A stretch of 64,000 nt of DNA from an uncultured delta proteobacterium (GCA_963804955.1 CAWDSQ010000026.1:147426-211425); one strand, 5' to 3'. Numbered from the stretch's first letter, positions 28,926-64,000 are shown. Program-made: numbers and translations. The notes: a model not told the origin generated them from the sequence alone.

Positions 28926-31900
28926 ATGCCAAAATTAATAAAAAAAGCTCGAAAAAATGCCTCAAAAGCTGTCACTGCCTCCAAAAAGAACCTCCCGGCA
29001 AAAACTAAACCAGCGCCCTCAAAAATACATGCGGCTGACAAAAAATCAGGTGCAGCAAAAAAGAAGCCTGGCAAAAAGCCTTCTGCTCCGGTTCAATCAG
29101 CAATGCTTCCCGTAGTCGGCATCGGTGCATCAGCCGGCGGGCTCAAGGCCCTTGAGAATTTTTTTGACAATATGCCCTCTGGCAGCGGCATTGCTTTTGT
29201 GGTCATCCAGCACCTGTCCCCTGATCACAAAAGCATTATGGGAAGCCTTCTTGAAAAGCATACAAAGATGAAGGTGCTTGAGGCTAAAAACGGCACAAAA
29301 GTTACGGCGAACTGCATCTACCTCAACCCGCCCACTACGAATATGAGCATCATCAACGGCACGCTCCGGCTTATGGAGCGCGGCAGTTCTCCAGCGCTCC
29401 ATCTGCCCATAGATTTTTTCTTCCGCTCCCTCGCCGAGAACCAGAAGGAACAGGCCATCTGCATTGTTCTGTCCGGCACCGGCACGGACGGCACGCTGGG
29501 GCTTAAGGCAGTAAAGGCCGCGGGCGGCATGACCATGGTTCAGCAGGAAGAAGATGCCGAGTACAGCGGCATGCCCCGAAGCGCCATTGACACCGGCCTT
29601 GTGGACTACATTCTTCCCGCAGCGAAAATGGCCGAAAGTCTTATACAGTACGCGCGGCACGCCTATCTGAGAAAGCCCCGGGAAGCTGAAAAACTTGATA
29701 AAAAAAACGAAGATTATGTCCAGAAGATATGTATGCTGATCCGGGCAAAAACCGGCCATGATTTTTCACATTATAAAATAAACACCATCCATCGGAGAAT
29801 CGAGCGGCGCATGGCCGTCCACAAGGTCGACAGTACCGCAGACTATGTCCGGCTGCTCAGTGAAAACCCGGCGGAAGTACAGGCTCTTTTCAAAGACATG
29901 CTTATCCTTGTCACCAGTTTTTTCCGGGACCCCGACGCCTTTAAAATACTGCAGAAAGCATTATCTGATCTCGTGGATAAGAAAGCGCAGGGTTCCTCTT
30001 TCCGCGTCTGGATGCCGGGATGCGCCACGGGCGAGGAGACCTATTCAGTTGCCATGCTGATCGCGGAAAGCATGGAGAATCTCAACAAACATCTGGTCGT
30101 TCAGATATTTGCCACCGACATTGATGAGGAGGCTGTCGCATACGCGCGCAAGGCCATGTATCCCGATTCTATAGCAGCCGACGTATCGCCCGAGCGGCTG
30201 AAAAACTTTTTTACAAAAGAGGAAAAAAACGTTCGCATAAAAAAACATATCAGAGAAATGGTGACGTTTGCCACCCAGAGCCTTACCCGGGACCCTCCAT
30301 TTTCAAAGCTTGACATGGTGGTGTGCCGCAATGTTCTGATTTACCTGGACGCCGAACTCCAGAAAAAGATATTTCCTCTGATCCATTACACGCTGAACCC
30401 GGACGGCATCCTTTTTCTGGGTTCAGCCGAAACCATCGGGAGCTTTACTGACTTCTTTACCCCGATTGACACGAAGTGGAAAATTTTCAAGCGTCAAAAA
30501 TGCCGACATGCCGCGAGCGCTGGAGCTGGCCGGAGCCGAACCCTACACCGTTGGTGTCGCACACAAGATGGAAAAAACCGCAAAGCTCACCGACCTTGAC
30601 ATCCGTGACATTGCCGAGATGGTCATCCTTAAAAAGTACAGCCCGTCCTGCGTTCTGGTCAACGACAAATATGAAGTTGTCTATTTCAGCGGCAACACCA
30701 ACAGGTACCTGTCTCAGCCGGTGGGTGTTCCCAACTTCAACATTCTGAAGATGGTCGACGAAAGCCTGCTCTACACTCTGAGCAGTGCCCTGCATACGGT
30801 TGCTAAACAGAAAACCACTGTAGTCTGCAAAGGCCTGCAGGGAAAGCAGAACAATGCGGACTATAGCGTTGATGTGACCGTCATGCCGGTTACGGCGCCC
30901 AGTGCCCGCGAGGGTTTGATGATGGTGGTGTTTGAAGACAGAACGCCGAAGGAAGCAGAACCCGAAGGAAAAAAGCCCGGCGCAAACAAAAAAGTGGACG
31001 CACGCATCGAAACGCTTGAGCAGGAACTGCGGTCAACAAAAGAGTATTTGCAGACCGCCATCGAAGAGCTGGAAACCACAAACGAAGAGCTCACGTCTAC
31101 CAATGAGGAACTGCAGTCGGCAAACGAAGAGCTGCAGTCCGCCAATGAGGAGCTTGAGACCTCCAGGGAGGAACTGCAGTCGACCAATGAAGAGCTTGCC
31201 ACCGTGAATGCAGAGCTTCAGACCAAAATCGATGATCTGTCCTGCGTCAACAACGATCTGAACAACCTGCTTGTCAGCACCGAGATCGGCACTATCTTTC
31301 TTGACAGCAGCCTGCGCATCAAGCGCTTTACCCCGTCGGTGGCAAAAATTTTCAACCTGATAAATACCGATATCGGCCGTCCTATCAGCGATCTCACGGC
31401 AAAGACAACCCATGAGGGCATTTATGCCGACTGCGGGAAAGTGCTCGCAACCCTGAATACGATCGAGAAGACGATAGGTGTTAAGAGCGGAGACTCCTTC
31501 AGCATGCGCATTCTCCCATACCGGACCCTTGAAAATGTCATAGACGGCCTTGTTCTCACCTTTACCGACATAACCGCCATTGTGAATGCCCGTGAAAACG
31601 CGCGCCTTGCCGCGGTGGTGAAGGATTCAAATGATGCCATAACACTGCAGGACAGGGAAGGTACTATCCTGGCCTGGAATCGCGGCGCCAGCCGCATGTA
31701 TGGCTACACCGAGTCAGAGGCCCTTGCAATGAACATCAGCAGCATGATCCCCGATGACAGGCAAAAGGAGTACTTCAAGTTCGTTCATGCTGTTTTTGCC
31801 GGCAAAGAGGTTGATTCCTTCAAAACCAGGCGAACGGCAAAGGACGGCCGCACGCTTGATGTCTGGCTGACCGTAACGGTCCTGAACGATAGCCAGGGCA

Positions 31901-31944
31901 AGCCGCAAAGCATTGCCACTACCGAGCGGGATATACAAAACTAA
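28926..31944 (+). CDS. CheB-CheR-PAS-coiled coil-PAS fusion (MAC1-like, no kinase), split by a frameshift near 30495
   Basis: CheB GASAGG/QHL/GTGTDG; CheR VTSFFRD, GCATGEE, CRNVLIY; repeated EELQSxNEEL heptads; C-terminal PAS; break at an A-run. Confidence 0.92.
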
Positions 31945-31999
31945 TAGCGCAGGCTCACTAGTGACAGTTCAAAGGTCCGGGTTCAAGTTGTATGAGTGT

Positions 32000-32234
32000 C
32001 TAGTGGGCTTTCACATTTGAATTTGTTGGATGAGATACAATCACTCGTTCTTAACACCAGTCCTGTCATTCCGGCTTGTCCGGAATCTTTTCCACCGCAG
32101 CGGAAGGATTCCGGACAAGCCGGAATGACGCTTGGGTTTTACTTTTTCAATTAACTTATCCCCCTAATTTTCATATATTGGCATTAAGAAAAGGGTGACT
32201 AAAACAGTTAATTTCAAATGTGAAGGTCCACTAG
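32000..32234. mobile_element. MITE with 22-bp terminal inverted repeats and central REP hairpin
   Basis: left CTAGTGGGCTTTCACATTTGAA vs right reverse complement CTAGTGGACCTTCACATTTGAA (20/22); palindrome gtcattccggcttgtccggaatc...gattccggacaagccggaatgac at 32065-32129. Confidence 0.8.
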
Positions 32235-32297: not shown

Positions 32298-34007
32298 ATG
32301 GCAGATTCAAAAAAACAGAGACAAGCTAAACTATTTAATGACCTGCGCAGAAAAGCTGAGCACCTCATGCAGGCCAACCCTGCCGAGTCGAAAAATAATG
32401 GCGCGCAAGATTTGAACAGCCTGCTGCACGAGCTTGAGGTTCACCAGATCGAGCTTGCCCTGCAGAATGAAGAGCTGCTGCGCTCACGGGCGGAAATAGA
32501 GGAATCCCGCCAGAAGTATCTTGATTTATATGACTTTGCGCCCGTCGGGTATATCACCTATGATGACAGGACCGGGCACATCACTGAAACAAATCACGCA
32601 GGCGCCGGGATGCTTGGCTGCGAAAAGGGAACGGCTGTCGGCAAGAAACTGATGAGTTTTATTATGCCGGAGTCACAGGATGTGTTTTATTTTCATAAAA
32701 ACAAGTGCTTCGAGACCCGGGAAAAACAGACCTGTGAGCTGAAGCTCAAAAAAAAAGGCCACCCCCCGGTACCTGTCCAGCTCTCGAGCATGCCCGTGGA
32801 TGCTGAAGGGCCAATGAAACTCCTGCGCATTGCGCTGACAGATATCTCCGAGCGCACACTCCTGTGGGATCAGCTCCGCGAATCCCGCAAAACGGAGGCG
32901 ATAGGAACCCTTGCAGGCGGCATTGCGCATGAGTTCAACAATATGCTGGGCGGCATTACCAACTATGCTGAACTGGCAAAAGCTGACATGCCCGCCGACA
33001 GGCCGGCGCGAGAGTATCTGGATGAGGTATTAAAGCTTTGCAAAAAAGCCCGGGATGTTGTCATGCAGGTCCTTTCCTACAGCCAGAAGCCCCGGACCGA
33101 GTACAAGCCGGTAGTAGTGCATTCACTGGTTGCAGAAACGGTAAAGCTGATGCGCTCCAGCATACCCACAAACATCGACATCCGGCAGGACATTGACGGG
33201 CAGGCAGGAACAGTGCTCGGAAACCACACACAGATACAGCAGGTGCTGATAAACCTGTGCATCAATGCGGCACAAGCCATGAAGCTGAAAAGCGGCCTTC
33301 TCACAATAAAAGTGGTGCCTGTCGCGCTTGATGCCGAGCAGGTGAGGCACTTTACCGATCTAAGGGCCGGGGCGTATGTAAAGCTCACCGTGAGCGACAC
33401 AGGCACAGGCTTTGACCCTGCAATCACAGAGCGCATCTTTGATCCTTTTTTCACCACCAAAGAGGTCGGCGACGGCAGGGGCATGGGCCTTGCGGAGGCG
33501 CAGGGCATTGTCAAGAGTCATGGCGGCGCCATAACTGTTTCAAGCATACTGGGGGCGGGCACAACCGTTACCGTATTTTTTCCCGCATCAGCGGATGCGG
33601 CTGCTGTGAACGCACCGGATACACGCCTGCAAGGGGGTACGGAGCGGATACTGATGGTTGATGATGAGGAGTGCATTGTTATTCCCGCAAAAATGATGCT
33701 TGAAAATCTGGGATACCGGGTAACAGCCCTGACCGACAGCCTGGAGACACTTGAGCTTTTCCGCAAAACCCCCGATGACTTTGATTTTGTTATAACCGAC
33801 CTTTCAATGCCCCACCTGACCGGCGAGCGGCTTGCAGCGGAAATAATCAAAATTCGCAAGGACATACCGGTTGTCATCGCAACGGGCTTCGTGGGAGCCG
33901 CAGACAATGAGGATTTAAAAAAAAGCGGCGTCAGGGGGGTCATAGCAAAGCCGTATAGCATGCAGGAGTTTGCCAAAAGCATCCGCTCTATTCTTGATGG
34001 AACATAA
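32298..34007 (+). CDS. cytoplasmic hybrid histidine kinase (coiled coil-PAS-HisKA-HATPase-REC)
   Basis: LHELEVHQIELALQNEEL, AHEFNN, NLCINA, DTGTG, FFTTK, GMGL; REC ITDLSMP. Confidence 0.95.
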   Translation: MADSKKQRQAKLFNDLRRKAEHLMQANPAESKNNGAQDLNSLLHELEVHQIELALQNEELLRSRAEIEESRQKYLDLYDFAPVGYITYDDRTGHITETNHAGAGMLGCEKGTAVGKKLMSFIMPESQDVFYFHKNKCFETREKQTCELKLKKKGHPPVPVQLSSMPVDAEGPMKLLRIALTDISERTLLWDQLRESRKTEAIGTLAGGIAHEFNNMLGGITNYAELAKADMPADRPAREYLDEVLKLCKKARDVVMQVLSYSQKPRTEYKPVVVHSLVAETVKLMRSSIPTNIDIRQDIDGQAGTVLGNHTQIQQVLINLCINAAQAMKLKSGLLTIKVVPVALDAEQVRHFTDLRAGAYVKLTVSDTGTGFDPAITERIFDPFFTTKEVGDGRGMGLAEAQGIVKSHGGAITVSSILGAGTTVTVFFPASADAAAVNAPDTRLQGGTERILMVDDEECIVIPAKMMLENLGYRVTALTDSLETLELFRKTPDDFDFVITDLSMPHLTGERLAAEIIKIRKDIPVVIATGFVGAADNEDLKKSGVRGVIAKPYSMQEFAKSIRSILDGT

Positions 34008-35824: not shown

Positions 35825-35856
35825 TTCTTTCTGTCAGCATCCTTCCTTTTTTACCT

Positions 35857-35912
35857 GTACCGTTAAACAGGACAAATCCCGTATGGCGGGACTCAGTCCC
35901 GCAGCACGGAAC
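35857..35912. promoter_or_regulatory. three tandem 17-bp palindromic boxes (GTCCCG-N5-CGGGAC), putative enhancer
   Basis: gtaccgttaaacaggac (35857), atcccgtatggcgggac (35876), gtcccgcagcacggaac (35896). Confidence 0.7.
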
Positions 35913-35967
35913 AGGTTTCCCTGTTCTGATACTTCTTCAGCGGAGTAAAAATGCGCTATCCACCTGA

Positions 35968-36034
35968 AATAACGATTGCTCTTGCATGCACAATCATCAT
36001 GGCCCGCTTTTTGTATTACTGTAGAAGTGAGGTG
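35968..36034 (+). promoter_or_regulatory. sigma54-like promoter cassette, copy 1 (TGGCCCGCTTTTTGTA)
   Basis: GG at 36001-2, GG-N10-GT; roughly 80% identical to 36506-36571. Confidence 0.6.
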
Positions 36035-36075: not shown

Positions 36076-36501
36076 ATGAAAAAATCCGTATATGCACAGA
36101 CGCGCGATAAGGCGCGCTTCGATGTTAACATCAAAGCCATGTATATCATCAGGGGCAGGGGAATGAAGCAGCAGGAATGCCGGATCACCAATCTGAGCAC
36201 AAGCGGTGCGACCGTGCACTCCCAGCGAACTGAAAATTTTACGGAAGGAACTGTTATTATAATTGCTATTGCCATTACAAACACCCTCATGCATATGCCT
36301 GCCGAGGCTGAAATCATGTGGATCAGGCAGTGCGCCAATGAATGTATAAGCGGCATCAGGTTCACGGCTATGCCCTGTGACATCATGATCCGGAAGCTCG
36401 TTAAAAAGACTTCGGAAATCTCTTGCGTTGCAGTAAAAAGCCGTAAGGTGAAATGTAGAACCGGAAAGCTTACCGAGCGTGAAAACGCGCTAACCGCCTG
36501 A
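36076..36501 (+). CDS. single-domain PilZ protein
   Basis: RDKAR (RxxxR) and NLSTSG ([D/N]xSxxG), AEIMW...GIRF. Confidence 0.85.
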   Translation: MKKSVYAQTRDKARFDVNIKAMYIIRGRGMKQQECRITNLSTSGATVHSQRTENFTEGTVIIIAIAITNTLMHMPAEAEIMWIRQCANECISGIRFTAMPCDIMIRKLVKKTSEISCVAVKSRKVKCRTGKLTERENALTA

Positions 36502-36505: not shown

Positions 36506-36571
36506 AATAACGATGCCGCTGCAGGCAAAGCCATAATGGCCGGCTTTTTGTATCACTGTTGAAGTGAGGTG
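36506..36571 (+). promoter_or_regulatory. sigma54-like promoter/RBS cassette, copy 2 (TGGCCGGCTTTTTGTA...GAGGTG)
   Basis: direct repeat of 35968-36034, heading the kai operon. Confidence 0.6.
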
Positions 36572-36575: not shown

Positions 36576-36974
36576 ATGAAATGTCTATTCTATGAAAAAA
36601 AACCCGGCATCATTGCGGAGCGGATTATCCGGCTGATGCAGCCTTCACCGGGAAAAAATATAATAGAGCTGTATCACACCATCAAAACCCTGTCTCAAAG
36701 ACTTTCCCGGCCCATAGACGGTCAGGCTATTATGATTCTTATAGCTGCCGACAGGGTAGATCTTTTGGATATCGTTTTGATGCACAAGCTGCTGCTTGAC
36801 ATTCGCGTCATCATCATACTTCCTGACCGGGAGGATGAGACTGTCAGTATAGGATACAAGCTGAAACCATGCTTTTTAACCTATGCGAACGCAAATTTAG
36901 ACGAAGTGCATAAGGTCTTAGGAAAATTACTTAAATTTTCAGAATCAGGCCAGAGGATATCAGGAGAGTGCTAA
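36576..36974 (+). CDS. hypothetical protein, degenerate receiver-like fold
   Basis: alternating beta/alpha pattern (IMILIA, VIIILPD) without canonical REC residues; GAGGTG RBS. Confidence 0.6.
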   Translation: MKCLFYEKKPGIIAERIIRLMQPSPGKNIIELYHTIKTLSQRLSRPIDGQAIMILIAADRVDLLDIVLMHKLLLDIRVIIILPDREDETVSIGYKLKPCFLTYANANLDEVHKVLGKLLKFSESGQRISGEC

Positions 36975-37034
36975 TATGGCGGAAATGAATAAAATTTTGT
37001 TTCATTACTTCAAATGCAGAGAAAGAAACAGGAC

Positions 37035-38790
37035 ATGACGATGGGTAAGGTTAAACAGGGTGTTGCTGTTCTTGAAAAATGCCCGACGGGCATCAAGGGC
37101 CTCGATGAAATAACAAAGGGAGGTCTTCCGAAAGGCAGGCCAACACTGATGTGCGGCAGTGCGGGTTGCGGCAAAACACTTTTTTCCATGGAGTTTCTCA
37201 TGCGGGGCGCCATGGATTACGGAGAGCCCGGGGTCTTCATGACCTTCGAGGAAGCGCCGGAGGATCTTGCCAAAAACTTCATATCCCTTGGTTTTGATCT
37301 CAATGATATGATCTCGCGCGGTCTTATCGCAACGGACCACGTCTACATCGAGCGCACCGAGATCGAGGAGACGGGTGAGTATGACCTTGAAGGATTGTTC
37401 ATCCGCCTGGGCAATGCCATTGATTCCATCGGAGCCAAGCGGGTTGTCCTGGATACCATAGAAGCGCTTTTTTCCGGACTGTCTCATACCGCTATCATTC
37501 GGGCTGAGCTTCGCCGGCTTTTTAACTGGCTGAAAGAACGCGGCGTGACAGCCATCGTTACGGGTGAAAGCGGCGAAAAGCTCCTGACTCGCTACGGGCT
37601 TGAAGAATACGTGGCCGATTGCGTTATTTTTCTCGACTTTCGCATCGAGGAGCAAATTTCCACCCGCCGCCTGCGTATTGTCAAGTACCGCGGCTCAGCT
37701 CACGGCGCCGACGAATACCCATTCCTGATAGACGAACGCGGCATCTCCATCCTGCCGATCACGTCCCTGGGGCTCGACTACGCGGTTTCCACGAGAGCGC
37801 ATCGCCACCGGCATTCCCAAGCTGGATGCAATGCTCGAAGGCAAGGGGTTCTACCGCGGCAGCACCATCCTTGTCTCCGGTACTGCGGGCACAGGTAAAA
37901 CAAGTTTGTCGGCAACATTCGCCGACGCCACCTGCCGGCGGGGTGAGCGCTGCCTGTATTTCGCCTTCGAGGAATCCCCCAGCCAGATCATCCGCAACAT
38001 GGGCTCTATCGGCATCGATCTCGGGAAATGGGTGAAGAAGGGTCTACTCAAGTTTCATTCAGCCCGGCCGTCGCTCTACGGCCTTGAGATGCATCTGGTC
38101 ACCTTTCACAAAGTTATCGATGAATTTGATCCACGGGTTTTTATCATAGACCCGATCAGCAACCTGAGCGCCGCAGGTACTGCGACTGAAGTCAAATCAA
38201 TATTAACGCGCCTGATCGACCATTTGAAGATGAAAAAAATCACCACATTCCTTACGGACCTCACTCATTTTAGCGGCAGTCTCGAACGCACCAGCGAAGA
38301 GATATCGTCGCTCATCGATACATGGCTTCTCCTGCGGGATATCGAACGCAGCGGTGAGCGCAACCGGGGCCTCTATATTTTAAAATCACGCGGCATGGAC
38401 CACTCCAACCAGATTCAGGAGTTCCTGCTCACCAACCGGGGTATTGACCTCATCGACATCTATACCGGGTCCGGCGAAGTCTTAACCGGCAGCGCCCGTG
38501 CAGCCCAGGAAGCCGGGGAAAAGGCCGGTGAGATGGCATGTCGGCGTGAGTCAGAACGCAGGCTCCGCGAGCAGGAACGCAAGAGGAATGCGCTGGAAAC
38601 AAAAATCGCGGCACTGCGAGCCGAGTTCGATGTGGAAACCGAAGAGGTGCATTTGATGGCGGAAGAAGAACACATACGGCAAGCTGTCCTGGCGGATGGC
38701 CGTTTGGCAATGGCGCATCTTCGTAAGGGGAACCCAGCAGCTCCACTGGCAAAGCGCTCGAAAAAAAAGAAGGAAAGGATGGCAGGATGA
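37035..38790 (+). CDS. kaiC: double-domain KaiC (KaiC2-type) with C-terminal coiled-coil extension; frameshift near 37794
   Basis: [44 protein letters not shown]; removing one base restores [10 protein letters not shown]. Confidence 0.95.
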
Positions 38791-39146: not shown

Positions 39147-39173
39147 ATTGTGCCTGCTGAGGAAATCAAAAAA

Positions 39174-50569: not shown

Positions 50570-50644
50570 AAGGGTTCTTATTGAAATTATCCCATAGAAG
50601 AAGCCCGAAAGTATGATCGCACCTTTAAAGGAAGGAGGAGCGAA

Positions 50645-52936: not shown

Positions 52937-52950
52937 AAAAGGAGGTACCT

Positions 52951-53681: not shown

Positions 53682-54392
53682 ATGACGAACAGCTACATCG
53701 TGTTGCTGGCAGCGGCCCTCCTTTTAGGGGCTTTAGGTGCACCAGGGGGTTTGAAAGAAGCCTCGGCACAGGTACAGGTCAACATTAATATCGTTGAACC
53801 TCCGCCTTTGCAATTTGCCTCACCGCCTGCTGTTTACGTTATTCCCAGTGGAAGAAGCTATGTCTATATGGTGCCGGATTACGATGGCGTCTATTTCTAC
53901 GGTGGCAACTGGTACAGGTTTTATAATAACCACTGGTTCCGGTCTTCCCACTACAACCAGCGCTGGGACTATATCGAGACGTCTATGGTTCCGCAGGTCA
54001 TCATTGTGGTACCCCCGGAATATATTCACTACGTACCATCAGGATATCACCGGATACACTACGACGACTTACACAGCAACTGGCAGTCATGGGATGAAAG
54101 ACGGCATTGGGACAGCTATGACTGGTATCAGAATGAGAGAAGGGATGATACACGGCGAGAACGGCATAATTATATTCAAAGGGATCGCCAACAGCGGGGT
54201 GCTCAGTCTCCGCAGCATCAACAAGTTCAGGGGCATCAGCAGCAGAATATCCAGAAGTCGCAAAAGCAACATATTCAAAAGCAGCCAAAACAGAATAGCC
54301 AAAAGCAAAAAAATTCAAATGATCAAAAACAGCAGAAGCACGATGGCCAGAAACAGCAGCAAGGAGAAAAAGAACACGGGGGAAATAAATGA
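53682..54392 (+). CDS. exported protein with aromatic-rich core and Gln/Lys-rich disordered tail
   Basis: signal peptide, V.VNINI.EPPP, YFYGG.WY; QKQ/QQQ tail. Confidence 0.75.
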   Translation: MTNSYIVLLAAALLLGALGAPGGLKEASAQVQVNINIVEPPPLQFASPPAVYVIPSGRSYVYMVPDYDGVYFYGGNWYRFYNNHWFRSSHYNQRWDYIETSMVPQVIIVVPPEYIHYVPSGYHRIHYDDLHSNWQSWDERRHWDSYDWYQNERRDDTRRERHNYIQRDRQQRGAQSPQHQQVQGHQQQNIQKSQKQHIQKQPKQNSQKQKNSNDQKQQKHDGQKQQQGEKEHGGNK

Positions 54393-54512
54393 AATGCCCG
54401 GGGCCAGGTGCTTTAAATTGCATGAAAATAGACTTTCAAAATCACAATTACAAAAACTGCTTATCATGGGCATCATAATTGTGCAGTGCTAAGTAGCAGC
54501 AAGGAGACACAC

Positions 54513-54824
54513 ATGAATGCAAAGCTTTTATTATGTTCATTGAAAAGAATGCTCCGGATTAGAAATGTAAAAAATACCGGCTTTAGCATTTTACCGTATG
54601 TTTTTTGTGCCCTGCTGCTCCTGACAAGTTCCTGTTTTTGGAAGTTTGACAGAGATGGATCGCACGACGGGCATGACCGTGACCAGCATCATGAACACGA
54701 AAGAAAAAATCTACGGCATGAAAGAGAACGTCAGGGCATGAATTTAAAACAGGGGGACTTCATCCACAATGACGGAATGGAAGAGTACGGTCAAAACAAC
54801 CGGAATAAGACACGGGAGCAGTAG
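54513..54824 (+). CDS. small putative lipoprotein with His/charged tail
   Basis: LLLLTSSC; HDGHDRDQHHEHER; AGGAG RBS. Confidence 0.55.
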   Translation: MNAKLLLCSLKRMLRIRNVKNTGFSILPYVFCALLLLTSSCFWKFDRDGSHDGHDRDQHHEHERKNLRHERERQGMNLKQGDFIHNDGMEEYGQNNRNKTREQ

Positions 54825-54928
54825 CGGCGCAGTTATGAACAGGAACAGCAAAGACCGGTAAAAGGAAAGACAATAAACAGTCTATTATTATCTGCATTTC
54901 TTGGACAGTTTATACTTGAAAGGGAACT

Positions 54929-55885
54929 ATGCCACTGACATCAGGAATCGCAGCCGACACTAACTCCTTCCATAGTACACAGCCGGGCACTAATCGTCCG
55001 GTAGGGATACAAGGCCGGGAGACAAGGGCAGATGTATTGCCAAACGCATATTCACGAATGCCAAAGATTGCCGAGACAGGCAATGAAACGCGTGAAAAAA
55101 GAACGCTGAGGTATCAGCCCGGCGATCGTATCATCAAGGAGGGAGACTTCAGCATTTCGCTCTACCTCATCGTGAGCGGAACGGTCAGTATTTTAAAAAA
55201 GCTGCATGACGAAGAGGTGCTGCTGTTTGAACTTGGGCCCGGTGACGTTTTCGGAGAGATGGTTTTTAACGATTGCAACCATGCTCCGCGCACTGAATCG
55301 GCTGTGGCAAAAGATGCCGTGGAGGTAGAAGCATGGCATTACCTTGCACTGTGGCTTGACTACCAAAAAATGCGCCCGATTATACAGCTCCTTGCTGTCG
55401 ACATGCTGGGTAAAATTGAAAAAATAAGTGCGGTTCATAAACGTCTGAGCCTCGACAAAACCCCAAAGACTCATGACGCTTATGTGAACCTAACGGTGCA
55501 TGAGCCGTCATGCGCACTCAAGCTAGCCGATGGGGAACCGGCGGGCATGGAGTGGAAGGGCCTGATCGAGTACCGGATGCCGGACAATCCTGATCCTGCC
55601 TTGCTTCGTGCCACAGGAGTCGACATCGGTGAAGAATGGATACGGTTCGACATACCTGTTGCCAACATGAACCATGGCGCACATGTATTGGGAAGAATAG
55701 ATATGATGATCCATCTGTCCGGCGGCGCACCGGTTAAAGTATGGGGGGAGATAGTGAGCATATCCCGGGGGGCGATGGTTGGGCACACGGCTTGTCGAGT
55801 TCACTTCCGAGATTTGACACCCGAAGCTCACCAGAGAATCGAGACATTTTTAACAACCAGTCCCAGTCGAAAGGAAGGGGCATGA
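54929..55885 (+). CDS. cyclic-nucleotide-binding domain plus degenerate PilZ-like domain
   Basis: II.EGD....YLI.SG.V, GDVFGEM, PRTESA; C-terminal V.GEIV...V.F..L. Confidence 0.8.
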   Translation: MPLTSGIAADTNSFHSTQPGTNRPVGIQGRETRADVLPNAYSRMPKIAETGNETREKRTLRYQPGDRIIKEGDFSISLYLIVSGTVSILKKLHDEEVLLFELGPGDVFGEMVFNDCNHAPRTESAVAKDAVEVEAWHYLALWLDYQKMRPIIQLLAVDMLGKIEKISAVHKRLSLDKTPKTHDAYVNLTVHEPSCALKLADGEPAGMEWKGLIEYRMPDNPDPALLRATGVDIGEEWIRFDIPVANMNHGAHVLGRIDMMIHLSGGAPVKVWGEIVSISRGAMVGHTACRVHFRDLTPEAHQRIETFLTTSPSRKEGA

Positions 55886-56277
55886 AGTTACCGGAAAACA
55901 TTACCAGATGGGTAAGAATCAGGCTTACTTTCAAGCAGGGTCAGTCTATTTTTGAAGAAGGCAGCGAAGCCCGCTATATACTTCTTATCATGGAAGGCCG
56001 GGTGCGCATCAAAAAGAATACTCCCGGGGGTATAGTTACGCTTAAGATCCTTGAAAAAGGGCAAGTCATTGGAGAGACAAGTTTTTTTGACAAGCATGCA
56101 AAACTGCGCGCCACAGCCGCGGTTGCCGAGACCGATGTAGTGCTCGGGATGTTCAACCGGGAAGAGCTTGAACAGGAGCTTTCCCGAATTTCACCTGTCC
56201 AGCAGGACATATTGGCCGGTTTAGCACGCAAGATACGCCTCACCACAGCTACTGGCGCCCTTCTGGCAGGGAGTTAA
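55882..56277 (+). CDS. stand-alone cyclic-nucleotide-binding protein
   Basis: IFEEG, EGRV.I, GQVIGE, R.TAAVA; no HTH. Confidence 0.82.
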   Translation: MKLPENITRWVRIRLTFKQGQSIFEEGSEARYILLIMEGRVRIKKNTPGGIVTLKILEKGQVIGETSFFDKHAKLRATAAVAETDVVLGMFNREELEQELSRISPVQQDILAGLARKIRLTTATGALLAGS

Positions 56278-56518
56278 AAAAGAAGCAGCCAACAACTGAC
56301 CTTCAGGACAGGCTTCAATATGAGGCAACAAAGGAGTGGTAGAAAGCCGGTTGGGGATAAAGGCAACCGTTGTCCTCTTTTCTCAGTTTTCGAAGAGCAT
56401 AAAGGAGTCCCGTTATCCAGGAAAAGTTCACCAAGATGGCGCCGAAAGGATTCATGTTTTCACAAGAATCCTTATAACGAAATAAACTGACTTAACAGGT
56501 CAAACAGGTGGGTTGATA

Positions 56519-56947
56519 ATGGACATTATATATACAAAGCTGAAATTTCTTAACATAGTCGAGCGCGAACGGGCGCGGACATATCGAACAGGGAATTATT
56601 TCTCTATTATAACTTTCAATATAAATACATTAAAAAAAAATGAGGCCGGGGAAAAAACTTTTGGTGATCTTCTTGTAAAAAACACCAGGAATTATGACGA
56701 TATCGGTATTCTTGAAAAAAACTGCTTTGCCATACTATTGCCTGAGACTTCATGTGAACAGGCCCATAAGGTTGCCGATAGATTGTGCAGTACCGTTATA
56801 CCCGAAAGCCTGAATCCCACATCTACGGTTATTACCTCGCCATTCCATGGGGCGCCGGTAATCAGAGAGATCTGCAACATACGGCGACAGAGACGTCCGA
56901 ACAATTCCGCACCTGACGGCATGGGCAAATACGTATGGCAGCCTTAA
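56519..56947 (+). CDS. degenerate GGDEF-like domain, possibly the N-terminus of the downstream transferase
   Basis: E..R..R....FSII, R..DDIG, FAILLPET....A..VA.RL; no GGDEF motif. Confidence 0.65.
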   Translation: MDIIYTKLKFLNIVERERARTYRTGNYFSIITFNINTLKKNEAGEKTFGDLLVKNTRNYDDIGILEKNCFAILLPETSCEQAHKVADRLCSTVIPESLNPTSTVITSPFHGAPVIREICNIRRQRRPNNSAPDGMGKYVWQP

Positions 56948-56954
56948 ACAAAAC

Positions 56955-57635
56955 TTGAAAATGCCTGGAACCCATATGCCTCCATGGAAACGGATAATTG
57001 ATATACTTGGCGCTGCTGCCGGTTTGCTGCTGCTGCTGCCGGTTTGTGTGCTTATAGCAGCATATATAAAAAGCGTTTCCCCGGGCCCCGCTCTTTTCAC
57101 ACAGAAACGCGTTGGATTCCTCGGGAAAACGTTTATGTGCTTTAAGTTCCGGACCATGCATATCAATGCAACTACATCCGTCCATAATAATTATTTGAAG
57201 AAATTGATGGTTAGTGATGTCCCCATGGAAAAATTAGACAGTTATGATCCTCGTATTATTCCCTATGGCAAATTATTGCGCAAATCCGGTCTTGATGAGC
57301 TGCCGCAGCTGCTTAATGTGCTGTTTGGCGACATGAGTCTCATCGGGCCACGGCCCTGCATACCGTATGAGGCAGAGCAGTACCAGCATTGGCACCTAAA
57401 ACGCTTTGAAGCGGTTCCCGGTATTACCGGGCTGTGGCAGGTAAATGGAAAAAACAAGACGACATTCAATGCAATGATGCGCTTTGATATTAATTATGCA
57501 CTGAAGAAAAATATCATGACAGATACCGCCATATTGTTGAAAACCGTACCTGCCGTCTTTAAAATGGTTATGGAAAGGAACACCGTAAAAGAGGCAAGTA
57601 TGGGCAATGAAAAAGCATATGAGCTGGAACAGTAA
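56955..57635 (+). CDS. priming sugar transferase (polyprenyl-phosphate glycosylphosphotransferase)
   Basis: KRIIDI, SPGP..F.Q.RVG, KFRTM, DPR, LDELPQL.NV..GDMSLIGPRP, PGITGLWQV. Confidence 0.95.
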   Translation: MKMPGTHMPPWKRIIDILGAAAGLLLLLPVCVLIAAYIKSVSPGPALFTQKRVGFLGKTFMCFKFRTMHINATTSVHNNYLKKLMVSDVPMEKLDSYDPRIIPYGKLLRKSGLDELPQLLNVLFGDMSLIGPRPCIPYEAEQYQHWHLKRFEAVPGITGLWQVNGKNKTTFNAMMRFDINYALKKNIMTDTAILLKTVPAVFKMVMERNTVKEASMGNEKAYELEQ

Positions 57636-57782
57636 ACGGCTGCTCTCTCTGCTGCGGAGCCTTGATCTTGACCTTTTAAATTTGCGCCTGATGAAACAAC
57701 AGGGACTTTTATCGGCGAATATGCAAACAGGCAGTGGAATATGAACAGACTTTTATACAAAGTCTCGATCAAAGGAGTTATT

Positions 57783-59827
57783 ATGATTAAAAAGTGGAAT
57801 ACAAAAAAAATATTATTATATACATTAAAGTGCGCCAGCTTTCTTATATTATTCAGTATTCTTGCGCTAAGCCCTTCCCTTCCCGCCGCAGCATCAGCAG
57901 TAATCATAGCGGACCACACCGTCGTGGACCAGTACGAAAAAATACCGCCGTACTGGATAAATGAAGTCAAGAAAATGTGGCTGAACGTGCCGGGAGAGTC
58001 CCACTCGAGCGGCTATCGCATCGGCCTGCAGCTGCTGGCGCAGCAAAACAGCCTGTTTGCCGCAAGCATCACCGAGTCGGGCACCCCGGAGGGATACCGC
58101 ACCGATGCGCTGCGGGCCAGCCGGGCATCATGGGGCGATATTGCTCATGCGACGCTGTGGCGCTACAGCTATGGTGAGGAGGATTTCTGGACCAGCCAGC
58201 TTGCCGGTACCCGCACCAAAGCCCATCTCACCTATGCCAATACGAACAACCTGCCGATAGCGGCCTTCGGCTTTGGCTGGTGCTGGGATATGACCTGGCA
58301 CAATGGGCCGGGCGGCGCCGTTGATCCTGTGTATAAGGTGCGGTGGGCCGGTTCAAGCGTGGGCGGAGCCAGCGGCGACCTGCGCTGGGGGTCTTGATGA
58401 CGGCGACAATGCCCTCACGGGCAACACGCTGAATATGGATGATTATCTTGCCGCGGTTGAGGCCTATCGCGCGCACTGCGCAGCCGGCGGCTATCCGACA
58501 AAGGTCTTTTTCACCACGGGCCCGGTTGACGGGTATACGGGAGAGAGCGGGTATCAGCGGTATCTGAAGCATGAGCGCATCCGGCAGTATGTGCGGGCCG
58601 ATGGAACCCGTATCCTGTTTGATTATGCTGATATTCTCTGCTACAGCAACGCGGGCGCTCTCAATGAAGAAAGTTGGACGGACGGCAGCGGTGGGATGCA
58701 CCGGTTTCCCCATATACATCCCGACAATATGAAAGACCTGAACGGGGGCTATGTGGAGGACGGGGACCATATCGGCCAGGTCGGCACGGTGCGGCTGGCA
58801 AAGGCCCTGTGGTGGATGCTGGCCAGGATGGCCGGCTGGGACGGCCAGACTGGAGCCACAACAACAGTGCCGGCAACGACAACTGTGCCCGCAACCACCA
58901 CATCCGTGATGCCCGCAACAACCAGTGCCCCGACCACAACGACCACGCAGCCGCCGACCACAACCACGACGGTCGCTGCAGTCACTACCACGACAACAGT
59001 TCTTCCGGCCACCACGACGACAGTGCCGGTCGATAGTCCTTTAGAAGATACCGACACGGACGGCGTGCCTGACTTCAACGACAACTGCCCGGCTGTTGCC
59101 AACTCAGACCAGGCTGACCTTGACGGAGATGGAACAGGCGATGCCTGCGACAGCGACCTGGATGGCGACGGCATCCCCAATGATGCTGACACCGATGGAG
59201 CCGCGTCAGCTTTAACCGGCTACTGGAAATTTGATGAGGGCACCGGCGTTATAGCCGCAGATGCTTCCGGGTATTCGAACACGGGCCTCTTATTCAACAG
59301 CACCCAATGGTCTGAGGGAATAGCCGGCAGCGGTATACAGCTTGACGGCAGTGATGATTATGTAAGCCTTGGCCAGAGCATCTTTAACATCACCGCTGAA
59401 TTTACCGTAGCCGGCTGGGTACAGCTAAGCCAGCTACTGAGCAGCTATCAGACAATAATTCAGAAGGGTGACTATGTGTATCCGTTTATGATCCGCGTCT
59501 ACGGGGACAAAATACAAACCTGCGTCAGAACTACCAAAACCAATTATCTGGCTTCAAATACCAGGCTCAAGGCCGGCCTGTGGTATCATGTCGCCTTGAC
59601 CTACCGCAGCGGCGAATGGATCATCTATATTAACGGCAGTGAGGATGCCGTTGATGCCATAACAGGCAATCCCGAATTTCGGCGCCTCTGCAACAATAAC
59701 GACTATAGGCAGAACCCTTAAGGGAACTAACCCCTTGAAAGGCAAAGCTGACGATGTCCGCATATACAGCAGGGCTTTGACAGCTTATGAAATATTTGCC
59801 GTGTACAATGAAACATTATTGCAATAG
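57783..59827 (+). CDS. secreted multidomain protein: possible SGNH-like domain, Thr linker, thrombospondin type-3 repeats, LamG-like domain (frameshifts near 58390 and 59670)
   Basis: signal peptide; GESH...[51 protein letters not shown]. Confidence 0.82.
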
Positions 59828-59958: not shown

Positions 59959-60228
59959 ATGCATAACGTCTTATTACTATACCGGGAGTTTCCTGATGCG
60001 TTTTGGAGCTTTAAGCACTCACGTGAGTTCATCAATAAAAAAGCAAGCTCCCCGCCCCTTGGGATTCTCACCGTCGAAGCCATGCTGCCGTGCAGTGGTC
60101 TAAAAAGCTTGTTGATATGCAATGTCTCCCGCCTCCCCGATGAAGACCTTGCCCGGGCTGATTATTTCTTCGGCAGGCACCTTAAAACATGGGGTCGCTT
60201 TCAATCATTGTTCTTTAACTTTTCATGA
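59959..60228 (+). pseudogene. N-terminal fragment of a B12-binding radical SAM protein (DUF4070 type)
   Basis: LLLY.EFPD.FWSFKH......KKA..PPLG.LTV.AMLP; similarity ends after about 70 aa, no CxxxCxxC domain follows. Confidence 0.75.
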
Positions 60229-60236
60229 GGTGCGCT

Positions 60237-60590
60237 ATGGAAATAAACAATCAGTCAGGTGGTACAACCGGAGACCACCCGGCGGAGTCTCAAGGTAAAG
60301 GTGAGTCAGCCGGCTTCGGGAAAGTCAACGATATTATTGCGGATACATTGCATACCGTTGCTGAGGTTATAGGTGAAAAAGCGGCAGAGCAGGACGTGCA
60401 ATCCGACATAGGCCGGTACGGAGAGCAGGTATCCGCGTGGCTGGACCAGGCAGCTGAGCACGTTCGGCAATTCGACTGCGAGCAGGCAGATGCCAGGGTC
60501 CGGGAGTACATCGGGCAGAACCCGGGGCGCAATCTCTTGATAGCAGGAGGCGTCGGCCTGATTATCGGAGCTGTTTTGCGGCGCAAATAA
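60237..60590 (+). CDS. YqjD/ElaB-like (DUF883) tail-anchored protein
   Basis: YI.QNPG..LLIA.GVGL.IG..LRR. Confidence 0.75.
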   Translation: MEINNQSGGTTGDHPAESQGKGESAGFGKVNDIIADTLHTVAEVIGEKAAEQDVQSDIGRYGEQVSAWLDQAAEHVRQFDCEQADARVREYIGQNPGRNLLIAGGVGLIIGAVLRRK

Positions 60591-60606
60591 GGAGGGGGTT
60601 TTGTTA

Positions 60607-60963
60607 ATGGACAACAAGGCGCCAAACAAGGACCCTGCACCACAAAACGAATCCTTCACCGCACTGTTGGGGCAGCTTATCAACAATTCCGCAGCGGTGG
60701 TTCACGACGAGATTGAGCTCGTGATCCAGGGAGTTCGAGAAAGGGTGCGTGCTTTTCGCAGCGCGGTCTTAACCGTAGCAGCAGGCGCGCTCATCTGTTG
60801 TGCCGCGGTCATGTCTCTTTGCGCTGCAGTGATCATCGCGCTCAGCTCGTATATGGCCCCCGTCAGTGCGGCGCTTGTCACGGGAGCAGCGCTTGCTCTG
60901 ATAGGTGTCGTCATTGCCTTCACCGGCTACAGAAAATTGAAAAAATCGTTCTTTAAAACATAG
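60607..60963 (+). CDS. YqjE-like / phage-holin-superfamily membrane protein
   Basis: S...LL..L......V.DEIEL plus two TM helices. Confidence 0.75.
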   Translation: MDNKAPNKDPAPQNESFTALLGQLINNSAAVVHDEIELVIQGVRERVRAFRSAVLTVAAGALICCAAVMSLCAAVIIALSSYMAPVSAALVTGAALALIGVVIAFTGYRKLKKSFFKT

Positions 60964-60996
60964 AAAATATGCAACCACGGATAAGGAGGACCAGCA

Positions 60997-61497
60997 ATGG
61001 CTGAAAAAAAGTCCCCGGAAAAAACAAAGGCAGCTGAGTGCAAACGCAGCACCGAAGAGATACGTCGGGATATCGCTAAAGGAGAAGAGATCATTTCCCG
61101 GACAGTCGATCAAATCGGCGAGCGTATAAAAGAGAAACTGGATTGGCATGAATATATGAAAAGCTCTCCCTACTGGGCGCTGGGGGCTGCCGCGGGCCTT
61201 GGCTATATTGCATCCAGGATGTTCCTGCCGCGCGCCACTCCTCTGGAGCGAATAATGGGTACCCTTGCCGAGGAACTTCACGGCACTCTCGGTGGCCTGC
61301 GCGCCGGGCCCTCCGGCTCCGACCTCATCAGGATGACCCTGGTGGCAATTGCAACGAAGGCTGCCGTCAGCTGGATAGAGAATTCAGCCTCGACAGCTGA
61401 ACAAAACGGTGGCGCCGAGCCTCGGTCGCAGACAGGGCATGGTTCAAATATGAGGCCGAAAGCCGCCAGGTCGAAAAAACCAAAAACAAGCCGTTAA
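60997..61497 (+). CDS. DUF3618-like protein
   Basis: RS.EEIRRDI......I..TV..I..R....LDW......P.WALG.A. Confidence 0.72.
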   Translation: MAEKKSPEKTKAAECKRSTEEIRRDIAKGEEIISRTVDQIGERIKEKLDWHEYMKSSPYWALGAAAGLGYIASRMFLPRATPLERIMGTLAEELHGTLGGLRAGPSGSDLIRMTLVAIATKAAVSWIENSASTAEQNGGAEPRSQTGHGSNMRPKAARSKKPKTSR

Positions 61498-61522
61498 CCT
61501 GTAATCATTATAGGAGATTACC

Positions 61523-61882
61523 ATGAGCGTAAAAAACGACAAACACGAGGCCAGCGAACAGCACATGGCAGAAGGCCACGCAAACGGAAGCGACGGGGTT
61601 ACTGCGCAGTGTTCTGTGGAATGCGGCGCCGAGGTTTTTGAGCACGCGGAGAAGGCTGTAAGCGATGCATATGATAAAACAGCACAGGTGGTAAGCGAAA
61701 CCTATGAGCAGGCCAAGAATTACAGCAGCAAAAATCCGGGCAAGGCAATGTTTATAACATTAGGGATAGGCGTAGGGGTGGGGTTTCTTGTCGGTGCAAA
61801 CTATCGCCGCTCGGTGACCGACCGGTTTGCTCAACCCGTGGTCAACGCGCTGTCCGATATTGCTTTGGCTTTTTTCCGATAA
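61523..61882 (+). CDS. second DUF883-like protein
   Basis: Y.QAK.Y...NPG....I.LG.GVG.G.L. Confidence 0.68.
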   Translation: MSVKNDKHEASEQHMAEGHANGSDGVTAQCSVECGAEVFEHAEKAVSDAYDKTAQVVSETYEQAKNYSSKNPGKAMFITLGIGVGVGFLVGANYRRSVTDRFAQPVVNALSDIALAFFR

Positions 61883-61912
61883 GCCCGTTGTCCCGCTGTA
61901 TTAGAGAATTTC

Positions 61913-63935
61913 ATGAGCAGTTCAGACCATTTCATCAAGTCGTCGCTAATGTTGACGCTGGCATCGCTTGCGGGCGTGGTGGCGGCTCTATACCCTTGCC
62001 AGGGGCGTTCTGATTCCCTTGACGCTGGCCGTACTGCTGAGCTTCCTGCTGACTCCCGTGTGCGGCTGGCTGGAGCGGCGAAATTGGGCCGGGTTCCGGC
62101 CGTTTTGGTTACGGCCGCTCTGGCTTTCACGCTCGTGGGCGCAGGCGCATGGGCAATAACGGTTCAAATGATAGACCTTGCCCCGAAAATACCAGAATAC
62201 CAGAAGAACATTCAAACAAAGCTGCTTTCGGTCAATGACTATTTCAGTACCGCGCTGAAGAGTGTCAGAAAAAAAGCCGGAGACATTGGCCAGCGTGTGC
62301 CTCCATCAGAGGCGGCCGGCAATCTGGAGGAGCGCGAGGAGCCGCCCGGCCGGTTCGCGTGGTCCTTTCGCCACCGAGCCCCCTTGAAGTTATTGGGGAG
62401 TAGTGTCGGCTTCCGTAGACCGTTCGTAGTTATGGGATCGACCGGCATCGTCATCGTGCTCGTGGTGTTCTTTCCTGATGCGGCGCGAGGATTTGCGCGA
62501 TCGCTTCATTCACCTGAGTGGGAAAAGGCCACGTGACCGTGACCACGCAGATGCTGGAAGATGCCGGCTGCGCGGGTCAGCCGCTATCTCCGATGCTATT
62601 TCTCATCAATGCCACGTTTGGCATTTCGTCAGCATCGGGCTGTACCTGATCGGCGTGCCCAATGCCATCCTGTGGGGTATCCTGGCCACGACATTGAGAT
62701 TTATTCCGTACATCGGCCCGTGGATTGCCGCGGCGATGCCGATTGGGCTGTCGATGGCCATCTCGCCGGGTTGGATAGCGCCCCTGCTGACCGTCGGGTT
62801 GTTCGTGGTGCTGGAGCTTTTCTGGACAATATCATGGAACCCTGGCTCTACGGCAAGAACACCGGCGTGTCGGCGGTGGCGGTCTTGGTGGCGGCTGTGT
62901 TTTGGATGTGGTTGTGGGGACCCGTCGGGCTACTGCTGGCGACCCCGTTGACCGTGTGCCTGTTGGTGGTTGGCAAGCACGTTCCCCAACTGTCCTTCCT
63001 GGACATTTTGCTGGGAAATGAGCCGGTTTTTGAGCCCAGGGACTCGCATCTATCAGCGGCTGCTGGCCGGAGATCAGGAAGAAGCCGAGGAATTGTTCGA
63101 GAACTATCTTGTGCACCAGCCGCTGGTCGAAGTCTACGACACGGTGCTCATCCCGGCACTGGCTTTGGCCGAGACGCATTGGCAACTCGGCGAACTCAAT
63201 GAGGGCAAGCACAACTTCATCATGGAAAGCCTGAAGGAGATGATTCAAGGCCAAGGTGAGCATCAGCAGGAGAATGTTGGCCAAGCGGGATGCCGCGGAT
63301 CGCGCAGTGGCAGACGACGATTCCATTCGAGTTGCCGAGATGACTCGTCACGTCTTTCGATTCTCTGCCTGCCCGCTCGTAGCGAGGCGGATGAAATCGC
63401 CGCCATGATGCTCGCGCAAGTCTTGGAGACGAGCGGCTGCCGTGCGCAGGCCATCTCGGTTACGGCATTGGCCGGCGAGATGGTTGATCTTGTCGATCAA
63501 TGCACGGCCGCCGACGTGATTTGCATTTCCGCCACACCTCCCGCTGCAGTCATGCATGCTCGTTACCTAAGCAGGCAACTCAGTGGTCAGGTTCCGGGTG
63601 CAAAACTGCTCGTGGGATTGTGGGACGCAAACGGCGACCTGAGCAAGGCCAAAGAACGCATCGGTTGCAGCACGGAAACTCATGTTGTCGGGACGCTGGC
63701 AGACGCTCAGGAACAGATCCGCCTCCTGATCAAGCCGCTCGTGCTTGGGCGGAAAACGCTTCAGCCGGGCTGCGGACACGCGCAAATACCAGCTCAATGC
63801 CAGCTTGCGCATTACCCGGGTAATGTTGGGTGCATCATAAACAAGCGCCGCTTCTATGTTGCAAACATACTGCACGACGGTAGTTGCGTCGCCAAATGGA
63901 GGAGTTTTTATGAAAGGTTATGTGAAAAACATTGA
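61913..63935 (+). CDS. AI-2E family transporter with long cytoplasmic C-terminal extension, multiply frameshifted (ends approximate)
   Basis: VLIPL.LAVLLSFLL.P, REDLRDR, LRFIPYIGP, EPWLYG..TGVS, WLWGPVGL.LATP, YQRLLAGD..EA across alternating frames. Confidence 0.85.
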
Positions 63936-64000
63936 AGACATTGCCGTCAAAAATGAGAATTTTCGCCAGGTGCTGTATACGGCCAAAAACATCCAGCTTG
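63910..64000 (+). CDS. cupin-domain protein, N-terminus only (runs off window)
   Basis: MKGYVKNIEDIAVKNENFRQVLYTAKNIQL; GGAGGAG RBS. Confidence 0.8.
   Translation, partial: MKGYVKNIEDIAVKNENFRQVLYTAKNIQL

Follow-up and report, generated by a model that had tools for sequence, protein, structure and literature searches.

A candidate mosaic of two sigma54 switches, one of them linked to KaiB and KaiC, in an uncultured delta proteobacterium

Organization of the locus

The locus described here occupies positions 28926-64000 of a 64,000-nucleotide stretch of DNA (the window) from an uncultured delta proteobacterium (GCA_963804955.1, CAWDSQ010000026.1:147426-211425). It lies at the end of contig C26 in a genome of 4.26 Mb that is 87% complete, and combines two sigma54 activators, kaiC and two kaiB genes with a row of mostly small genes downstream (Table 1). 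From the sequence alone it had been read as one cascade, in which activator 1 turns on the kai genes and the state of KaiB and KaiC gates activator 2, which drives a general-stress island. The explanation that we favour, with moderate confidence, is a mosaic of two sigma54 switches, each of which is used alone in different relatives to run similar small sets of stress and envelope genes. Comparison with related loci indicates that two separate stress-gene switches were spliced together locally, which gives the look of a two-step cascade, and that this cascade is not a conserved design.

The gene order is as originally described, and every nameable gene lies on the plus strand; 19 of 19 long minus-strand open reading frames (ORFs) tested lack a Pfam match. 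Module 1 would consist of activator 1, a triple box and a GT-variant promoter, with activator 1 acting independently of the kinase encoded upstream. Module 2 would be a mobile cassette of kaiC, two kaiB genes and activator 2 together with a box pair and a promoter. Because the named relatives of window genes fall in Syntrophales, Smithella, Desulfobacterales and Geobacteraceae records, we infer a Desulfobacterota-type anaerobe as host. Box and pseudo-receiver scans covered 401 genomes of the phylum; in the box counts, kin are not independent of one another.

Table 1. Features of the locus, in window coordinates.
Feature	Position	Strand	Basis
CheB-CheR-coiled-coil-PAS fusion; split near 30494 by a 1-nt indel, probably an assembly error	28926..31944	+	Pfam
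Hybrid histidine kinase: CheBR-associated coil/PAS head, HisKA, HATPase, receiver	32298..34007	+	Pfam
Activator 1: receiver-AAA+-HTH sigma54 activator, Glu at phospho-acceptor position, GSFTGA loop	34409..35824	+	Pfam, motifs read
Box set 1, predicted enhancer for activator 1: 19-bp palindrome (core TCCCG-N5-CGGGA) in three tandem copies	35856..35913	.	Repeats, conservation
Promoter P1a, sigma54-type, GT at -12	35999..36015	+	Matrix scan, conservation
PilZ-domain gene, local insert flanked by ~105-bp promoter duplication	36076..36501	+	Pfam
Promoter P1b, duplicate of P1a without own boxes	36536..36552	+	Conserved in L106, L107
Pseudo-receiver gene with a CheY-like fold that lacks the acceptor Asp; usually the first gene behind promoters of the activator-1 type	36576..36974	+	Structure comparison
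kaiC, Rhodobacter-type, two Ser sites, C-terminal coiled coil; split near 37794 by a 1-nt indel, probably an assembly error	37014..38790	+	Pfam, structure match
First kaiB	38787..39146	+	Pfam/NCBIfam
Second kaiB, predicted partner of activator-2 head	39150..39512	+	Pfam, complex prediction
Activator 2: Kai-linked head (residues 1-175: coil + strand + PAS), more PAS, AAA+ (GAFTGA), HTH	39518..42226	+	Pfam, motifs
Box pair 2a: CCTCA-N6-TGAGG, NN, CCACCA-N5-TGAGG, predicted activator-2 enhancer	42290..42323	.	Conservation
Promoter P2a, sigma54 -24/-12	42422..42438	+	Scan
DUF932/TIGR03299 phage/plasmid-like gene	42491..43585	+	Pfam/NCBIfam
Box pair 2b, first half degenerate	43653..43686	.	Conservation
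Promoter P2b, sigma54 -24/-12, last sigma54 site found in window	43782..43798	+	Scan
ABM-family gene, usual first box-2 target; right cassette edge near 44240	43811..44215	+	Pfam
Stress-type genes: glutaredoxin, Thivi_2564, BON (split), DUF5670, lipoproteins, DUF4398-OmpA (split), Ysc84, CsbD	44311..51211	+	Pfam
Mixed block: LRR_5, small lipoprotein, DUF3309, two cyclic-nucleotide (cNMP) proteins, sugar transferase, LamG; mostly not stress-type	51587..59721	+	Pfam
Holin-X/YqjE-like gene, split AI-2E transporter gene and unconfirmed ElaB-like ORFs; G018 has this block too; end of contig at 64000	60225..64000	+	Pfam

Each activator is tied to its own boxes and promoters

Both activators match PF00158 (expect values 5e-65 and 3e-69 for activators 1 and 2) and possess Walker A and B motifs, a GAFTGA-type loop, an arginine finger and a C-terminal helix-turn-helix (HTH); the genome also encodes RpoN (TIGR02395 above cut-off, in a gene split by a frame break). 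On these motifs both are intact sigma54 enhancer-binding proteins.

The two predicted promoters downstream of activator 2 are borne out, in that a GG-N10-GC site (at 42422 and 43782) follows each box pair at 97-100 bp. When the matrices are built from relatives' sites only, P2a and P2b alone score 20 bits or more anywhere in the 4.26 Mb of the genome. The motif recurs at related loci, where GG-N10-GC stands 96-100 nt downstream of the box in 29 of 30 fetched cases; the columns of box 2 are 93% conserved as against 74% for the spacer, and GG and GC are invariant. The AT-rich spacer was judged by eye for an integration host factor (IHF) site, and we claim none. Box pair 2 was found in 25 of the 401 phylum genomes, compared with two matches for a reversed-pattern control. 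Of 24 box-positive genomes, 18 have an activator-2-type HTH (at least 63% identical), as do 6 of 50 box-negative ones, which were chosen mostly from the same families; six further genomes were unscanned for the box. At three loci with other HTHs box 2 is absent. Because the spacing of box and promoter is conserved and the cognate HTH co-occurs with the box, activator 2 is tied to box 2 and P2, and by conservation each activator thus appears to have its own box set and promoter, as had been proposed.

Genes usually found behind box 2 in relatives are ABM, CsbD, BON, OmpA and small lipoproteins. The DUF932 gene, which here follows P2a, was otherwise seen next to the cassette in L049 alone, and partially in L054. 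Measured from the promoter GC, the ABM start codon is 12-14 nt downstream in 13 matched loci (L111-L137) and 13 nt downstream here (43798-43813), where transcription would be expected to begin; the ABM mRNA is probably leaderless, and conserved as such. A reversed box pair 2 with no sigma54 site behind it was seen just upstream of kaiC in L036 (at 7261), L048 (at 6678) and L052, and may reflect autoregulation or remnants.

No further sigma54 site was detected in the window after 43798, in keeping with the original prediction, which had confined clear sigma54 promoters to the first two downstream units; the next best sigma54-like site, near 56661, reaches 12-15 bits and has no box. For lack of a strong sigma54 site beyond 43798, no link to either activator is apparent for the last 20 kb, and the proposal that activator 2 drives the whole 35-kb island is unsupported.

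The module-1 output differs in its promoter. The triple palindrome is present as three 19-bp repeats, and the -24/-12-like promoter lies 87 bp past the last of them, as expected, except that it reads GG-N10-GT and not GC; a strict GG-N10-GC scan accordingly did not pick up P1. P1b, likewise with GT in place of the canonical GC, had escaped the earlier list; it belongs to a duplication of ~105 bp around the PilZ gene, which has seven paralogs elsewhere in the genome. Box set 1 with the same type of promoter is found in eight copies in G001, G003 and G030. A module-1 matrix built from relatives' sites only gives three sites of at least 20 bits in the host genome, two of them in the island. A second box set 1 of the host (G000:C30:352000-349000, minus strand; L174) has GC at -12. 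This C30 box set precedes a membrane/PAS/EAL gene in pieces; with this PAS-EAL target and a PilZ gene behind P1a, a link between activator 1 and cyclic di-GMP is possible.

The REC-like gene has the CheY-like fold that had been suggested (template-modelling scores 0.6-0.7, best expect value 0.002), with Ala at the end of strand 3, the acceptor-Asp site of receivers as judged from the fold. No Pfam match was obtained for any of 40 members of this pseudo-receiver family, nor did a solved sequence match. The family occurs in 51 of the 401 phylum genomes. Of 43 loci given, two were dropped for want of a hit; the gene lies downstream of an activator-1-type gene in 24 of the remaining 41. A relaxed sigma54 site is present at 31 of the 41, compared with 107 of 2,000 random windows, the -12 dinucleotide being GT in 13, GA in 11 and GC in 7. 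Given this linkage and enrichment, P1 is most likely a sigma54 promoter with a relaxed -12 element. The pseudo-receiver might possibly be a feedback partner.

The activator-1 receiver argues against a phosphorelay

A phosphorelay from the CheBR fusion through the hybrid kinase to activator 1, as first suggested, is doubtful. At the position of the NtrC-type phospho-acceptor Asp after strand 3, activator 1 has Glu, as do 15 of 18 scorable homologs (window copy included), whereas distant activator-1 relatives have Asp in 8 of 8. The receiver cannot take a canonical Asp phosphate, and activator 1 is probably constitutive or controlled by contact with another protein, not by the upstream kinase. 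Among three close relatives, the kinase gene precedes activator 1 in one, G001, and is missing from that place in G003 and G030. Because of the Glu and this sporadic presence, the relay is unlikely. In L048, L049 and L054, the CheBR gene precedes an activator-2-type protein that itself bears the kinase's head.

In L209, L211 and L212, an Asp-type relative of activator 1 is directly preceded by a large hybrid kinase whose Kai-type head is degenerate and which has no adjoining kai genes.

The second KaiB is predicted to bind the head of activator 2

The window KaiC is a double-domain protein with two Ser sites and a C-terminal coiled coil, as in the Rhodobacter-type KaiC2 class, and is encoded in one unbroken 597-aa frame in L107. 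The set departs from cyanobacterial KaiABC in its lack of Ser/Thr sites and of kaiA (PF07688), which was not found in the 87%-complete genome. Because KaiC is of the Rhodobacter hourglass type by homology, its state should follow the ATP/ADP ratio. In an unrooted tree of 27 rows, from which G018 and other split or short kaiC were omitted, the window KaiC falls in a group of 18 rows (support 100/99) that spans several orders and lies apart from the same-genus G004 copies; this placement fits lateral movement, and we claim no donor.

The order kaiC-kaiB-kaiB-PAS/AAA+ activator turned out to be conserved across Desulfobacterota-type anaerobes, as a synteny check of the prediction called for. The head, taken as the first 181 residues of activator 2, directly follows kaiB in all 29 loci examined (the hits with at least 34% identity out of 41). 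Behind it, 14 loci encode a sigma54 AAA+ protein and 6 a kinase; at the other 9 the output is cut off or unclear. Among non-self head homologs in the best 120 of 680, AAA+ is attached in 97 of 119 and a HisKA_3 kinase in 22 of 119. In G029, kaiB and head are duplicated together. At one locus, L144 (G162:C95), three kaiB genes stand between kaiC and the head.

Complex prediction with ESMFold2 covered the second KaiB and the head. On a head dimer the second KaiB scored 0.71, compared with 0.35 for the best of three controls; in a calibration that holds roughly for this job, 116 of 157 solved pairs attained this mark, as did 2 of 215 mismatched ones. The runs share at least 91% of contacts, and the partner has a predicted local distance difference test (pLDDT) value of at least 78. 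Contacts are predicted between head residues 36-41 and KaiB 81-82, and between residues 82 and 95-100 of the other copy's PAS domain and KaiB 64-69. No solved chain matched head residues 1-55. Among 16 head loci from an independent search, the strand 36-41 is kept in 12 of 12 beside kaiB and lost in 4 of 4 without it, and kaiB was not found in two of the genomes with such strand-less heads. Conservation at the interface (0.79, compared with 0.63 for the rest and 0.70 within residues 20-104) was set aside, the model having been built on the same alignment. It is thus fairly likely, from structural prediction and the pattern of gene loss, that the second KaiB binds the N-terminal head of an activator-2 dimer, and the proposed control of activator 2 by KaiB gains support from both.

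By our assumed residue numbering, the predicted interface touches both the KaiC-binding and the KaiA/CikA-binding regions of KaiB, which suggests that KaiB may switch partner between KaiC and the head. As summarized in the relevant part of a review, KaiB binds KaiC mainly via its C-terminal half and KaiA/CikA via strand 2 (PMC6378743). In the mechanism we propose, the second KaiB would dock on the head of the activator-2 dimer and, when free, hold the activator off; at low energy charge KaiC would capture KaiB, and the freed activator would open P2a and P2b. The sign of this control, with free KaiB inhibiting and capture by KaiC releasing, is one to which we give only a slight preference over the reverse.

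An alternative is that the Kai proteins are passengers, the head being an ordinary PAS sensor of a small ligand or redox state and its place beside the kai genes due to shared mobility. The free swapping of heads in the family and the 4 of 16 heads without kaiB would fit this. It sits poorly with the unbroken adjacency to kaiB across several phyla and with swapped outputs, with the joint duplication in G029, with the passed complex prediction and, as far as the text of PMC9478674 was available to us, with the binding of fold-switched KaiB by KidA PAS domains; we hold it to be unlikely.

A probable local splice of two modules

The coupling of the two modules is confined to a narrow lineage. At none of the 24 kai loci whose upstream sequence extends over 2 kb or more does activator 1, PilZ or the pseudo-receiver gene precede kai, and at none of 41 pseudo-receiver loci does kai lie within 1.5 kb. 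In G001, G003 and G030, in which kaiB was not found, the pseudo-receiver is joined directly to glutaredoxin and the same stress genes; in G018 the order is kai-activator 2-ABM-glutaredoxin. The gene set at 44311-51211 is common to both kinds of island. Likeness to kai cassettes starts near 37003, and likeness to module-1 islands resumes near 44240. Comparison thus shows the position of the cassette, placed between the pseudo-receiver and glutaredoxin genes of what would be a module-1 island, and we consider it likely that it was inserted here rather than lost elsewhere. The junction between module 1 and kaiC is kept in L106 (91% identical), L107 (86%) and one contig of run X1, and only in such close kin (86-94% identical).

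A sigma70-like element lies 90-230 nt upstream of kaiC in 13 of 17 relatives and is not intact in the window, where ~35 nt of the usual leader are left and 40 bp separate the pseudo-receiver gene from kaiC; the -10-like hexamer of the leader is not kept in the window, L106 or L107. No terminator-like site was found between 35930 and kaiC. Because kaiC has kept so little of its leader, we think it marginally more probable than the opposite that activator 1 transcribes kaiCBB-activator 2 by read-through, in a local feed-forward arrangement. Switching on of kai by activator 1 therefore stays plausible in the lineage with the junction, to which this first tier must be restricted, and is not conserved beyond it; an activator-1 promoter upstream of kai and activator 2 does not recur across lineages.

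Two other accounts of the locus can be weighed against these data. One takes it as a conserved design, in which CheBR and the kinase phosphorylate activator 1, which turns on kai, which gates activator 2, which in turn drives the entire 35-kb island. All parts are indeed present in order and co-oriented, with no terminator-like site from 35930 to kaiC, the junction persists in three related sequences, and activator cascades are known in Myxococcus (PMC12288465, in the part available). Yet the two modules are uncoupled at all the kai and pseudo-receiver loci counted above, the acceptor is Glu, the kinase is present in one of three close relatives, no sigma54 site follows 43798, and in L043 and L051 it is box 2 itself, not module 1, that stands upstream of kaiC. 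We regard this account as quite unlikely. The other has the modules brought together by recombination and working in parallel, kaiC having a weak sigma70-type promoter of its own and the activators feeding shared genes separately (OR logic). Each module does work alone elsewhere, L048, L049 and L054 hold two activators with the same HTH and different heads, and a decayed promoter-like stretch precedes kaiC; the 40-bp gap without a terminator and the loss of the -10-like hexamer here and in L106 and L107 speak against it, so that we judge it not very probable.

Several points also weigh against the mosaic with a Kai-gated, read-through cassette that we favour. The 40 bp before kaiC resemble a decayed sigma70-like element, so weak transcription of its own is possible. 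G001 and G003, of the same genus as the host, are 76-79% complete. The complex score is a measure of model confidence, and the 0.35 of the control that retained KaiB shows a certain stickiness of KaiB in the model. The heads that have lost the strand, four in number and three of them from one genus, are moreover the most divergent overall (32-36%), and one kaiB-adjacent head scores hardly better than these at the interface (17 of 39, compared with 14-16). Among 19 activator-2-type proteins examined, 2 bear a Kai head, 3 a CheBR-type head and 13 other PAS heads, and 1 is cut off; a Kai head on this family occurs in 4 of 24 box-positive genomes. Because the family mostly bears other heads, Kai would be dispensable for the regulon and one plug-in input among others. 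Finally, kaiC is split in the source assembly.

Frame breaks and the downstream island

At least eight frame breaks affect the island, splitting cheBR (frames 28926-30599 and 30466-31944), kaiC (37014-37898 and 37831-38790), BON, a lipoprotein, OmpA and AI-2E. Together with the radical-SAM remnant at 59959-60228, they could be taken for a decaying island in which kaiC is a true pseudogene of this strain. Elsewhere in the genome, however, rpoB, rpoN and gidA are split too (rpoC is intact, and gyrA, not found, gives no information on frameshifts), and both halves of every split gene remain well conserved. Contigs of other runs, which represent related populations distinct from the source sample, have exactly one base fewer at 30494 (cheBR; seen in two other runs), 37794 (kaiC) and 46450 (BON), and unbroken CheBR homologs of 874-901 aa exist in L048, L049 and L054. 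Since housekeeping genes are split as well and kin contigs differ by a single base, the breaks in cheBR, kaiC and BON are probably assembly errors in the form of 1-nt indels, and a pseudogene is most unlikely.

Families such as CsbD, BON/OsmY, DUF5670 and YqjE-like proteins are targets of the RpoS, SigB and EcfG general-stress regulons. The island was accordingly expected to consist of stress-type genes, and CsbD, BON, DUF5670 and holin-X/YqjE-like genes were matched. This description does not extend to the two ElaB/YqjD-like ORFs, which match no Pfam or NCBIfam model, to ~8 kb of genes that are not stress-type, or to the phage/plasmid-like DUF932 gene. No RpoS or SigB sigma factor scored above cut-off in the 87%-complete genome, which encodes two RpoD-like factors besides RpoD (G000:C7:164089-164769 and C24:203227-203916) and two of extracytoplasmic-function (ECF) size; one of the extra RpoD-like factors could stand in for RpoS.

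DUF5670 is duplicated in tandem (46898-47047 and 47113-47270), the second copy starting near 47132. Full-length homologs of the radical-SAM remnant are present in the box-2 islands L050, L158, L162 and L167. At 63910-64000 the start of a gene is cut by the contig end; its 30 aa have no Pfam match, and we presume a resemblance to cupins. Just outside the locus, at 27575-28294, lies a SleB-like cell-wall hydrolase gene with DNA 85% identical to copies beside the G018 and G030 islands, which probably belongs to the island. REP-like hairpin repeats separate the signalling genes (28554-28622, 32065-32129 and 34251-34330) and have many contig matches at high depth. Searches of the window for tRNAs and against Rfam gave no match. 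Counts of sigma70-like and terminator-like sites are near shuffle levels in 28300-46300, and promoter-like sites in 46301-64000 number 27, compared with 17.4 +/- 4.5 for shuffles.

Comparison with known systems

The closest described arrangement, in the portions of the papers available to us, is the kaiC-kaiB-PAS/histidine-kinase operon of Rhodopseudomonas palustris and Rhodobacter sphaeroides (PMC4794148), where R. sphaeroides KaiBC is an ATP/ADP-driven hourglass (10.1101/2022.11.28.518275). The locus resembles it in lacking KaiA and in having a PAS protein behind kaiB in one operon. The best solved match of the window KaiC is PDB 8DBA (expect value 1e-91), with two Ser sites and a coiled-coil tail, and that of KaiB is 8FWJ. 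The locus differs in that kaiB is present twice, that the PAS-bearing output is an AAA+-HTH sigma54 activator where the operon has a histidine kinase, that this activator has a defined enhancer and targets of stress type, and that the host is a non-phototrophic anaerobe.

KidA of Synechococcus elongatus binds KaiB through an N-terminal PAS region, and outside cyanobacteria PAS genes are frequent neighbours of kaiBC, with products that may bind Kai proteins (PMC9478674, as far as available). KidA has a GGDEF/EAL output and tunes a KaiABC clock. The KaiC-kinase-response regulator systems of Pseudomonas (10.1101/2022.01.26.477890) and kaiBC of Legionella (as cited in PMC5520375 and PMC11372060) are, in the passages we consulted, linked to stress; like these, the present locus would tie Kai homologs to stress resistance and not to a self-sustained clock. 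The Pseudomonas systems have no KaiB and signal through kinases, and the text available mentions no sigma54 activator as output.

On the sigma54 side, activators of Desulfovibrio vulgaris, in the text of PMC4641369 at hand, likewise sit beside their own palindromes and a -24/-12 promoter, and the GSFTGA variant occurs among them; that text contains no occurrence of kaiC, and its consensus has GC at -12, compared with mostly GT or GA in module 1. Activator-to-activator cascades are known from Myxococcus xanthus (PMC12288465, again in part). Unlike in RpoS, SigB and EcfG regulons, the first island genes here carry sigma54 enhancer-promoters. The locus hints that anaerobic bacteria of the Desulfobacterota type have a general-stress regulon run by sigma54, with an activator that swaps input heads.

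As the original prediction supposed, a characterized system joining Kai proteins to a sigma54 activator was not found described in the open-access literature. New here are the family around module 1, the predicted KaiB-head interface with its pattern of loss, and the proposed origin of the cascade as a mosaic. In its fullest form, our reading is that the coil-strand-PAS head is a dedicated KaiB-binding output domain through which ATP/ADP-sensing KaiBC directly switches a sigma54 stress activator, and that in this lineage a phospho-mimic activator 1 transcribes this switch, creating a new feed-forward loop; this combination we put forward tentatively, as a possibility short of an even chance. 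The locus would illustrate how a regulatory cascade can arise by the splicing of cassettes, the two-tier cascade itself being restricted to a lineage. In the part available to us, the output path of KaiA-less KaiBC is stated to be an open question for R. palustris (10.1101/2022.01.26.477890). Compared with that system, the present locus offers a candidate one-protein output of KaiBC, with an enhancer, a promoter and a predicted KaiB-binding surface of named residues, and its defined parts therefore make the question testable in E. coli or in vitro.

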